The position numbers and the translations under genes are program-made. Below the pieces are notes generated by a model. That model did no database searches and was not told the origin of the DNA. It worked only from the letters and a program-made list of their open reading frames with translations. From Candidatus Omnitrophota bacterium (GTDB lineage: Bacteria; Omnitrophota; Gorgyraeia; JAFGHF01): a stretch of DNA of 57,733 bases. How positions within the stretch are numbered: position 1 is the first letter of the stretch; each line of letters begins with the position of its first letter. Where the stretch lies: positions 1 to 57,733 of the forward strand of contig JAZDHS010000032.1 of assembly GCA_043805735.1 (NCBI GenBank), read 5' to 3'. This document shows positions 41,301 through 41,779 of this stretch, piece after piece.

Positions 41301-41634
41301 GCGCGCGGGCCTCTTTACTGTAAGGGCACCCGGCGTCACGAAATGGTTCATAGAGAAGTGGTTTAGGCGCAACGATTTTAATAAAGGTGCGAAAACCCTT
41401 GAAGGGTGTCAGATGATAGGCCTGATTGGCAGGATAGAATTCGAGCATCGCGCCGTCTTTATCGCGCACACCGAAGGAGCTGACGCACTGCCCACGGTTG
41501 ACATAAAACAGCCACAGCGGTGTGCCGTATAAACCGGCGATGCCGGGAAAGAAGCTGGAAAAGGCTTTGGCAAAATTGTAATTTTCAATTACAAAATCGC
41601 CCGATTTCTCCAGCCGATACTGCACTTTCTTCAC
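38371..41634 (-). CDS. Large (1087 aa) GH94-like (alpha/alpha)6-barrel glycoside phosphorylase/hydrolase superfamily protein, specificity unknown
   Basis: C-terminal pattern [24 protein letters not shown]...[16 protein letters not shown]...[19 protein letters not shown] resembles the catalytic barrel of GH94/GH15-type enzymes. The stop is 3 nt upstream of the malQ start. The GTG start lies inside TIR element copy B. Confidence 0.5.
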   Translation of the reverse strand: [1087 protein letters not shown]

Positions 41635-41757
41635 CCCGCCCTTCCTTTCCTTGTATTGCCAACGAAAATATTGCTTGTAGTGAATATTATACGCATTGCC
41701 TAAACCTTTAAGCCTGCCTTCGCTCGATATGTATTGCTTGTTCAGGAAGGGCGGGGT
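41633..41757 (-). repeat. TIR element copy B (125 bp)
   Basis: ACCCCGCCCTTCC (41633-41645) and GGAAGGGCGGGGT (41745-41757) are perfect inverted repeats. Confidence 0.85.
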
Positions 41758-41779
41758 TCATTTGCCACTCCGCTTATTA

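Follow-up and report, generated by a model that had tools for sequence, protein, structure and literature searches.

Start-codon inverted repeats with paired mini-ORFs in an Omnitrophota contig: probable relics of a very small mobile element with a GIY-YIG reading frame

Three genes on the minus strand of contig JAZDHS010000032.1 from Candidatus Omnitrophota bacterium (assembly GCA_043805735.1; the whole stretch of 57,733 nt that was analysed is called the window here) are preceded by similar inverted-repeat elements, copies A, B and C, each of which holds two very small open reading frames, mini-ORF1 and mini-ORF2 (Table 1). What is the role of these mini-ORFs, and where do they come from? 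A preliminary description of this DNA regarded them as parts of a translation-dependent switch, in which a ribosome on mini-ORF1 melts an arm of a stem and a ribosome finishing mini-ORF2 is delivered onto an otherwise closed start codon. We arrive at a different answer that we consider probable: the three loci are non-autonomous copies of a tiny mobile element, comparable to miniature inverted-repeat transposable elements (MITEs), the mini-ORFs are relics of its coding region, and the hand-over of ribosomes to the host gene is constitutive.

A GIY-YIG reading frame and its short derivatives at start codons

Read in gene sense, the three copies share one layout: a Shine-Dalgarno (SD) sequence of the host gene, ATGAA, the 5′ arm CCCCGCCCTTCC, an interior of 62-101 nt, the 3′ arm GGAAGGGCGGGG and a right flank that reads TGAAG in copies A and B and TTAACG in copy C. 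In copy B these arms are perfect 12-nt inverted repeats. The 12-nt arm occurs six times in the window compared to 0.59 expected occurrences, and none of 100 shuffled sequences reached six. The last G of the 3′ arm and the TG of the right TGAA form a GTG, called the rebuilt start codon in the following. Translation reproduced the coordinates and peptides of all six mini-ORFs of the preliminary description exactly, and the overlap of the mini-ORF2 TGA with the downstream GTG in copies A and B was found as described. Equally present are the AGGAGGA motif 5 nt before the ATG of copy C, which overlaps the stop codon of an OEP/TolC-like gene, and the GGAG motif 6 nt before the ATG of copy B. Only the position of the mini-ORF1 start needed correction, as its ATG is not embedded in the distal arm and lies 2 nt outside the perfect repeat (ATGAA followed by CCCCGCCCTTCC).

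The origin of the mini-ORFs is indicated by a longer copy of 286 bp elsewhere in the same genome (G000:C41:2379-2664). In this copy, one ORF of 97 codons extends from the ATG of the flank to a TGA that overlaps the rebuilt GTG. Residues 11-76 of the deduced protein match the Pfam family GIY-YIG (PF01541) with an E value of 4.8e-16; T5orf172 and MUG113 give weaker, overlapping Pfam matches to the same stretch, nothing was matched elsewhere in the protein, and a search of NCBIfam yielded no match over the cut-offs. As in the Ssn nucleases discussed below, this is a single-domain GIY-YIG protein of about 90-100 aa. The nearest solved structures in the Protein Data Bank (PDB) are those of the UPF0213 proteins 1zg2 and 1ywl. 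The start of the nuclease ORF, MNPALPK, is encoded by the 5′ arm and its end, GKGRAG before the stop, by the 3′ arm. Its C-terminal tail GLAKLKSRLGIAGKGRAG resembles the tails of short copies, which are KLSKSNIYIGNAGKGRAG in the mini-ORF2 consensus of the source genome and SLAKVKFNFGIARKGRAG in a sister genus (G008). Since both the ends and the C-terminal tails match, the comparison shows mini-ORF1 to correspond to the N-terminal stump and mini-ORF2 to the C-terminal stump (...IG.AGKGRAG, stop) of the nuclease ORF. In the 124-bp consensus the two mini-ORFs even lie in one frame, with a single stop codon (TAA or TAG), GCA and ATG between them, and the frame is open from end to end in copies of 49, 85, 121 and 154 bp; together with the 286-bp copy these are 7 of 31.

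These 31 copies belong to a genome-wide family. The source genome (G000, 1.31 Mb in 61 contigs) contains 23 perfect arm pairs, or 34 if one mismatch per arm is allowed, and 31 copies were oriented by their flanks after three pairs had been set aside, one of them a 46-bp piece nested inside C2:44441 and the others two members of a second family. Short copies measure 49-154 bp. The left flank is ATGAA in 26 copies, ATGAG in two, GTGAA in two and ATAAA in one, so that 30 of the 31 conform to NTGA(A/G); the right flank is TGAA in 27, TGAG in two, TAAA in one and TTAA in one, the latter being copy C. Both sides agree (TGAA, TGAG or TAAA) in 30 of the 31 copies, and this matching of even the rare variants is the pattern of a 4-nt target duplication. 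At the rebuilt GTG of 26 copies, an ORF of at least 100 aa begins with a native-looking N-terminus, and the insertion point is therefore the native start codon. By their sequence we take some of these N-termini to be IleRS-, NusA-, CoaD-, PanC-, IlvB- and IlvN-like. The five exceptions are copy C, a Rossmann-fold gene with a second interruption 40 nt later, the TAAA copy, where the gene begins at the adjacent ATG, and two short ORFs of 36 and 43 codons. In 21 of the 31 copies a long upstream ORF ends with the TGA (once TAA) of the left flank, and a stop/start overlap of the ATGA type inside an operon is thus the usual target. Copies A and B are among three copies that have no long upstream ORF ending nearby, and in copy C the upstream gene's stop codon lies 13 nt ahead of the ATG.

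Copies at different loci are up to 98.4% identical (median 81.5%, 105 pairs), which indicates recent spread or gene conversion. The short copies show features of MITEs: they are short, non-coding and present in many copies, they end in terminal inverted repeats, and their flanks look duplicated, with empty sites known elsewhere. In general they occur singly, with occasional tandem or nested pairs. At L066 and L071 a full-length copy is directly preceded by a short one, inserted at the rebuilt start, and at G000:C2:44441-44564 a short arm-to-arm unit lies nested or in tandem with a 124-bp unit; such pairs give the impression of a second insertion at a rebuilt start.

Empty sites were found in relatives and in strains. 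The orthologues of the gene behind copy B in 10 of 25 relatives start at the residue that aligns with the GTG, with no arm pair at this start, and the orthologues of the adaptor gene behind copy C (12 of 25 relatives) have ordinary short N-termini and no element. For copy C, contigs from two public sequencing runs, X1 and X2 (share of query words at most 0.17), bridge the site without the element. The joint in X2 connects 54943 to 55069, which are the borders of the element, with 7 other letters in between and 4 mismatches in 320 nt on the longer side; the joint in X1 connects 54943 to 55085 with 27 other letters in between, with 7 mismatches in 232 nt on one side and 3 in 416 nt on the other. 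The sequence of both empty alleles in gene sense is ATG AAA AA(A/G) (GTT/ATT), then TTA ACG ATT, with a single ATGAA and the N-terminus MKK(V/I)LTIII. Copy C therefore arose by insertion at ATGAA and has since lost 11 nt when measured against an empty allele with duplicated TGAA; the missing letters are the right TGAA and the 7 bases behind it. This loss removed the rebuilt GTG and fused the frame of mini-ORF2 to the efflux-adaptor gene, the first 21 codons of which are now supplied by the element. In this otherwise intact gene no in-frame start other than the mini-ORF2 ATG precedes the membrane helix, and this ATG presumably works as start codon if the adaptor gene is still expressed. Joints seen at the site of copy B turned out to be cross-mapping arms of other copies (sides of about 21 nt) and were uninformative.

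A stable hairpin over a ribosome-binding site together with small upstream ORFs could also represent a cis-regulatory leader, i.e. a riboswitch, an attenuator peptide or the protein-binding RNA of a regulon. This explanation is hardly credible. Rfam, applied to the whole window at gathering thresholds, matched none of the copies, and its one match was a c-di-AMP riboswitch at another place. The genes behind the elements have unrelated functions, to judge from the N-termini named above and from Pfam matches to an efflux adaptor and to response regulators. Between genera, the interiors are entirely different whereas arms and flanks are the same. Orthologues do without the element, and near-identical strains have empty alleles. 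Together, empty sites and the unrelated set of genes already refute a leader effectively. What appeared as a regulatory leader has become evidence for a mobile element whose way of life is unusual.

The family is not confined to one genome. The 20-nt 3′ end plus TGA was detected with up to 2 mismatches in 13 of 41 genomes searched among the relatives, the source genome included. G008, a genome in one contig from another genus of the same family, has 39 such matches, and 38 of these sites could be analysed, the left part of one consisting of N. The copies in G008 show the same arms, the same flanks (NTGAA on the left, TGAA on the right) and the same position at start codons; their interiors differ (69/70, 106, 109 and 124 bp), and in 17 of the 38 the left TGA closes an upstream frame that is open to the edge of the DNA examined. 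An exact scan of species-representative genomes gave at least 98 stretches, with titles mostly of Omnitrophota or Omnitrophica, of which 80 were examined; some of them may duplicate genomes already counted. A left arm was present within 345 nt in 61 of the 80, and among these 61 loci 54 have an NTGA(A/G) left flank and 55 a following frame that is open for at least 100 codons.

The 97-aa protein itself is matched, often by several copies, in 175 of the 201 genomes of the class. Thirty GIY-YIG loci of the class were classified by eye: 11 have inverted arms that contain both ORF ends and an NTGA overlap with the gene that follows, 5 show a modified form of this layout (early stop, tandem copy, -7 overlap), 8 have other arms with the ORF inside them, and 6 have neither, some of these standing beside tRNA genes. 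The start-codon architecture is common to five arm sequences; each 3′ arm has an SD-like purine run before the rebuilt start, which is an ATG in the two arm types that end in A. The small GIY-YIG genes at L088, L089 and L091 adjoin or overlap tRNA genes and do not have the start-codon architecture, and the loci L076-L078, L080, L083, L084, L086 and L094 have different arms with GAATT…/…AATTC flanks and the ORF wholly inside.

At no fewer than six orthologous genes (N-termini compared), the same gene start is occupied in both genera by elements of different length; we read these genes as queE, kdsB, ilvN, rpiB, argJ and one epimerase-type gene. At the presumed queE, a 286-bp element with the nuclease ORF in G000 compares with a 106-bp element in G008. 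This suggests that some insertions are old and have been decaying in place.

Selection on the mini-ORFs and translation of the host gene

In RNA, the arms are predicted to form a stem of 13-15 bp with -33.7 to -44.7 kcal/mol (z -3.1 to -4.0; none of 200 shuffled sequences was predicted to fold as well) that covers an SD-like GGAAGG and the first base of the GUG. The 3′ arm carries the SD-like sequence GGAAAGGAAGG, then comes the GTG and then the overlap with TGA; the 3′ end of the 16S rRNA was not found in the source assembly. On its left side the element keeps the SD sequence and the ATG of the host gene and usually also the upstream gene's stop codon. An alternative reading of this arrangement is a switch, in which selected mini-ORFs act in series, mini-ORF1 melting the stem and the termination of mini-ORF2 feeding a closed start. 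The 124-bp consensus indeed reads as a textbook relay of ATGA (-4), mini-ORF1, TAA-GCA-ATG (+3), mini-ORF2 and GTGA (-4), and spacings of -4 and +3 lie within the range of efficient coupling according to the consulted sections of PMC12548453. An ATG-started ORF that ends at the TGA overlap is kept in 29 of the 31 copies of the source genome, and the mini-ORF2 ATG is the only plausible start of the gene behind copy C. The termination-reinitiation geometry noted in the preliminary description is real and general. In the same sections of PMC12548453 a stop/start overlap of this kind is the standard -4 coupling layout.

If the mini-ORFs functioned as leader peptides or upstream ORFs, either the peptide or the frame should be under selection. 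We compared the variability of codon positions, synonymous and non-synonymous changes with control frames, and stop-creating changes with a spectrum-matched expectation in three families of aligned copies. The first comprised 13 of the 15 copies of exactly 124 bp in G000, one rearranged and one divergent copy having been left aside. Its interior had 16, 19 and 19 variable sites at the three codon positions, 24 of 110 changes were synonymous (16% expected; control frames 16/109 and 26/113), and 5 changes created stops where 6.8 were expected. For the 106-bp family of G008 (12 copies) the corresponding values were 21, 24 and 23 variable sites, 21 synonymous changes of 161 (19% expected) and 11 stops against 13.1 expected; for the 109-bp family of G008 (7 copies) they were 23, 24 and 24 sites, 9 of 93 (18% expected) and 7 stops against 5.6. 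In none of the three families was there a bias in codon position, an excess of synonymous changes or an avoidance of stops, and peptide sequence and openness of the frame therefore drift as if unselected. By these comparisons the mini-ORF peptides behave as neutral relics, and the conserved parts are the arms and the junction. The conservation of the mini-ORFs that had been described from three copies accordingly holds for the nucleotides and not for the coding level, as neither mini-ORF shows a sign of selection; the caution given at that time, that coding selection could not be separated from nucleotide conservation, was appropriate.

Copies with broken mini-ORFs between intact arms had been named in the preliminary description as the observation that would speak against its proposal, and such copies are frequent in the sister genus. 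Of its 38 copies, 11 are startless in the terminal frame, 5 more retain only MKGRAG and the stop as a reading frame of 6 codons, and 19 are open from the host start; 16 are hence without a usable mini-ORF2. Arms are intact in each of these 16 and an open frame follows, which extends through the 35 residues examined except at L062, where it stops at residue 31 because a second element interrupts the gene. Of the 61 copies in the wider set, 38 lack a frame that is open throughout. The constant length of 21 codons for mini-ORF2 applies to the three copies of the window and to only 20 of the 31 in the genome. In the window, mini-ORF1 and mini-ORF2 are out of frame in all three copies (spacings of -20, +11 and +31 nt in A, B and C), and with 86, 123 and 125 bp these copies are 1-nt length variants of the in-frame 85- and 124-bp forms. 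On this evidence we regard a switch made of selected mini-ORFs as unlikely. Its layout need not have been built for such a purpose, because the ATG is the start codon of the host gene itself and both mini-ORFs are remnants of the GIY-YIG ORF; it follows from the mode of insertion.

Some observations weigh against entirely neutral relics. Lengths that keep the frame are over-represented, as a switch would lead one to expect (24/31 in G000, 25/38 in G008 and 31/61 in the wider set), and exceed the one-third expected by chance. Moreover, the mini-ORF2 ATG and the preceding AAAGG are among the least variable positions of the interior. Both points weakly argue for some selection on an open frame or on restart signals. 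Most off-frame lengths are neighbours by 1-2 nt of abundant in-frame classes, which fits in-frame founder copies that decayed later. A further weak sign in this direction is the scarcity of stops in frame 0, with a mean of 1.29 in G000 and 0.76 in G008 compared to 2.6 to 3.3 in the other two sense frames; since the antisense frames are equally poor in stops, base composition contributes to this scarcity. The interiors of the 124-bp type, for example those of copies B and C, contain a recurrent motif, (A/G)GCAAT(G/A), with 2.4 occurrences per copy compared to 0.16 in shuffled sequences. The motif may be a protein-binding subterminal repeat. One of its occurrences includes the mini-ORF2 ATG, whose conservation may have a cause at the DNA level, and to this extent it does not speak for a switch.

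How would a host gene be translated behind such an element? A ribosome that starts at the host ATG, or is coupled from the upstream gene, would unwind the stem of the arms: the 5′ arm is reached two bases later, so that translating from the old start would open the new one. The suggestion that translation of mini-ORF1 melts the arm can be retained in this sense, and so can the sequestered start as far as the predicted pairing over GGAAGG and the first base of GUG is concerned; a purpose-built device is not needed for either, and a dedicated or regulated switch is not supported. If the frame is open, or split only by TAA-GCA-ATG, termination at the GTGA overlap would pass the ribosome on by reinitiation. 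If the frame is broken, direct initiation at the SD sequence and the GTG of the element would serve the host gene, and in broken-frame copies it must suffice, because such copies precede apparently intact genes. A constitutive translational hand-over of this kind is plausible and would make insertions into essential genes tolerable. Intact, stop-split and frame-broken copies provide a natural test set for the question to what extent coupling needs an open upstream frame. One contig of 168 nt from an RNA library extends over copy B and its flanks (41622-41787, 1 mismatch) and weakly hints at transcription of the element together with the gene behind it, without removal; this sole hint from RNA is also explicable by carry-over of DNA.

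Mobility of the element and related systems

The GIY-YIG protein is likely the element's own mobility enzyme, to judge from the way ORF and arms belong together, and perhaps it acts on hairpinned single-stranded DNA as the Ssn nucleases do. In five arm variants the nuclease ORF makes up one unit with the arms. Arm ends are found together with a cognate full-length copy in G000 (31 arm ends), G140 (38), G082 (4) and G012 (1), and G002 and G004, of the same family, have neither. A search for the DDE_Tnp_1 family yielded nothing in G000 or G008, and the rve family gave a single match in G000 and none in G008; apart from Y1, other transposase families were not searched.

Several points weigh against this role. 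G008 has 39 arm ends and no cognate full-length nuclease, and its best GIY-YIG matches are only about 49% identical and have other ends. No joining of DNA strands is known for hydrolytic GIY-YIG nucleases. Y1 transposase genes (IS200/RAYT type) exceed the Pfam cut-off in both genomes, one in G000 and five in G008, and a true 4-nt duplication is indistinguishable from an element that carries a terminal TGAA and inserts 3′ of TGAA. Alternatively, the repeats could be hairpins of the REPIN/REP kind, moved by a Y1 transposase (RAYT/IS200 type), and the GIY-YIG ORF a passenger or an independent homing gene. TGAA followed by an element that ends in TGAA is formally the outcome of an insertion of the IS200/IS605 type 3′ of a tetranucleotide, and the many copies without a cognate nuclease in G008 also speak for this alternative. 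We nevertheless consider this quite improbable. No arm (up to 2 mismatches) was present near any of the six Y1 loci, with about 1.1-1.2 kb searched on each side in G008 and the first 4.5 kb of C48 in G000. Furthermore, both ends of the nuclease ORF lie within the arms in at least five arm variants, so that ORF and arms evolve as one unit, and the terminal inverted repeats pair with each other and do not form separate subterminal hairpins.

Returning to a GIY-YIG protein that moves its own element, the placement on start codons may reflect a choice of target, or a nuclease ORF that has no start of its own and can be expressed only on starts. The short copies argue for a real target choice, because they do not need expression and still are found only on starts. 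In its strongest form, the proposal is that the form of 286 bp mobilises itself, as a transposon below the size of any known insertion sequence (IS); its only gene would be the 97-residue Ssn-like GIY-YIG single-strand nuclease without a start of its own, expressed as an additional cistron at the host start or ATGA junction, and its miniatures would survive in essential genes by passing the ribosome on. We put this forward tentatively, as a possibility that we would sooner doubt than accept. If the GIY-YIG protein does move the element, the element would represent a new enzymatic class of bacterial transposon and would be the smallest autonomous bacterial transposon, and the recently described Ssn nucleases would gain an origin in a selfish element.

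Features of the element recur separately in known systems. Bacterial MITEs (Correia/NEMIS, RUP, ERIC) and the Rickettsia palindromic elements (RPEs) are short elements in many copies that end in inverted repeats and lie between short duplications of the flank. They derive from a longer coding element by internal deletion and are transcribed together with host genes, and RPEs are even translated in frame. In contrast to the parents of MITEs, the parent described here has 286 bp and encodes a nuclease and not a DDE transposase, and its insertion is confined to start codons, where it borrows the start codon of the host and supplies a new SD sequence, start and stop. Free-standing GIY-YIG homing genes of phages (Seg/Mob type) likewise are small selfish nuclease genes between host genes with little polar effect. 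They have DNA-binding domains, translation signals of their own and one cognate site; the present element differs by inverted arms, miniature derivatives and dozens of unrelated target genes.

The closest parallel in position comes from mycobacterial interspersed repetitive units (MIRUs). MIRUs occur as tandem units, which the Omnitrophota elements do not. They are apparently mobile short repeats at start codons (Supply et al. 1997, as cited in the consulted part of PMC12548453), and their internal ORF is coupled to the host gene by a -4 (NTGA) overlap that is thought there to minimise the effect on expression. The Omnitrophota elements share the start-codon site and an internal ORF whose stop overlaps the host start at -4. 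They belong to another phylum, and have inverted arms, a 4-nt flank repeat and a coding parent, none of which is described for MIRUs in that part of PMC12548453. 

The closest parallel in enzymology is provided by the Ssn nucleases of the Ssn/SRM system (cd10448), single-domain GIY-YIG proteins of about 94 aa (Chenal et al. 2025, excerpts of PMC11893778). According to these excerpts, the ssn gene is flanked on both sides by a repeat with tens to hundreds of copies in the genome, an arrangement that the authors liken to the architecture of an IS, and the enzyme binds the hairpin of this repeat in single-stranded DNA, cleaving the flank a few nt upstream. By analogy, a cut of this type fits a cut at the TGAA beside the arm. 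A small GIY-YIG nuclease paired with genome-wide repeats is common to both systems, and here the gene is flanked by repeated arms. Unlike the Ssn repeat (NTS), which in the excerpts is a self-contained hairpin of 28 nt, a single arm forms no hairpin alone; two 12-nt arms pair mutually across the element and are part of the ORF. The term 'start codon' is absent from PMC11893778, and the PDB matches of the 97-aa protein are UPF0213 proteins. A literature search, with subscription journals outside its coverage, retrieved no description of such an element, and we have not found in print the combination of a 286-bp inverted-repeat element that borrows the host start, miniatures, a TGAA flank repeat and a preference for ATGA junctions.

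The element borrows the start of the host for its nuclease gene and returns a ribosome-binding site, a start and a stop/start overlap, which would allow it to sit in genes with IleRS- and NusA-like N-termini without killing the cell. As a consequence for annotation, dozens of Omnitrophota genes start at a GTG made by insertion; gene callers tend to misplace or extend such starts, the efflux adaptor behind copy C being an example.

Genes in the window and minor observations

The coordinates of the three copies and of the adjacent genes are compiled in Table 1.

Table 1 Elements, mini-ORFs and neighbouring genes in the window (all on the minus strand)
Feature	Position	Strand	Remarks
Copy A, element, 86 bp	23362-23447	-	arms 23436-23447 and 23362-23373
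Copy A, host ATGAA	23448-23452	-	ATG 23450-23452
Copy A, rebuilt start	23358-23362	-	GTG 23360-23362, overlaps mini-ORF2 TGA; right TGAA 23358-23361
Copy A, mini-ORF1	23405-23452	-	MNPALPNTSNACKIN, stop (translation)
Copy A, mini-ORF2	23359-23424	-	MHVKLTESNIFVGNDRKGRAG, stop (translation)
Response regulator, single-domain, 127 aa, after copy A	22979-23362	-	PF00072, E 5.3e-28
Copy B, element, 123 bp	41634-41756	-	5′ arm (gene sense) 41745-41756, 3′ arm 41634-41645
Copy B, host start and left TGAA (ATGAA)	41757-41761	-	ATG 41759-41761, start of mini-ORF1
Copy B, rebuilt start	41630-41634	-	GTG 41632-41634, overlaps mini-ORF2 TGA 41631-41633; right TGAA 41630-41633
Copy B, mini-ORF1	41708-41761	-	MNPALPEQAIHIERRQA, 17 codons and stop (translation)
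Copy B, mini-ORF2	41631-41696	-	MRIIFTTSNIFVGNTRKGRAG, 21 codons and stop (translation)
Conserved protein, 1087 aa, after copy B	38371-41634	-	starts at rebuilt GTG; no Pfam match
Copy C, element, 125 bp	54944-55068	-	arms 55057-55068 and 54944-54955
Copy C, host ATGAA	55069-55073	-	ATG 55071-55073
Copy C, right flank TTAA	54940-54943	-	rebuilt GTG and first codons gone
Copy C, mini-ORF1	55038-55073	-	MNPALPKTSNV, stop (translation)
Copy C, mini-ORF2	54944-55006	-	MQIKLSRGNIFVGNTGKGRAG, no stop, runs into 320-aa ORF 54044-55006 (translation)
HlyD-type efflux adaptor, 320 aa, after copy C	54044-55006	-	PF16576, E 4.6e-27; mini-ORF2 ATG 55004-55006
OEP/TolC-like gene, upstream of copy C	55084-56355	-	TAG overlapped by AGGAGGA

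The second family that was set aside above has the arms CCCCGCCCCTCC and GGAGGGGCGGGG with TTTA on both sides (G000:C20:22068-22175 and 25534-25639, and L062). It inserts inside the Rossmann motif GGAGF of epimerase-type genes, where the old N-terminus is cut off (…VTGGAGFTPPLQK, stop) and the 3′ end of the element encodes a new start and the replacement N-terminus MKKKILVTGGAG, the arm itself coding for GGAG. The same layout is present at one gene in G008 (L062).

The c-di-AMP riboswitch of the window (RF00379, 52.8 bits, E 1.9e-09) is located at 44175-44314 on the minus strand, directly upstream of an ORF of 723 aa (41975-44146), which is the gene upstream of copy B. The spacer of 213 nt between this gene and copy B contains an imperfect inverted repeat of 22 nt at 41834-41882 (73% complementary, 5-nt loop).

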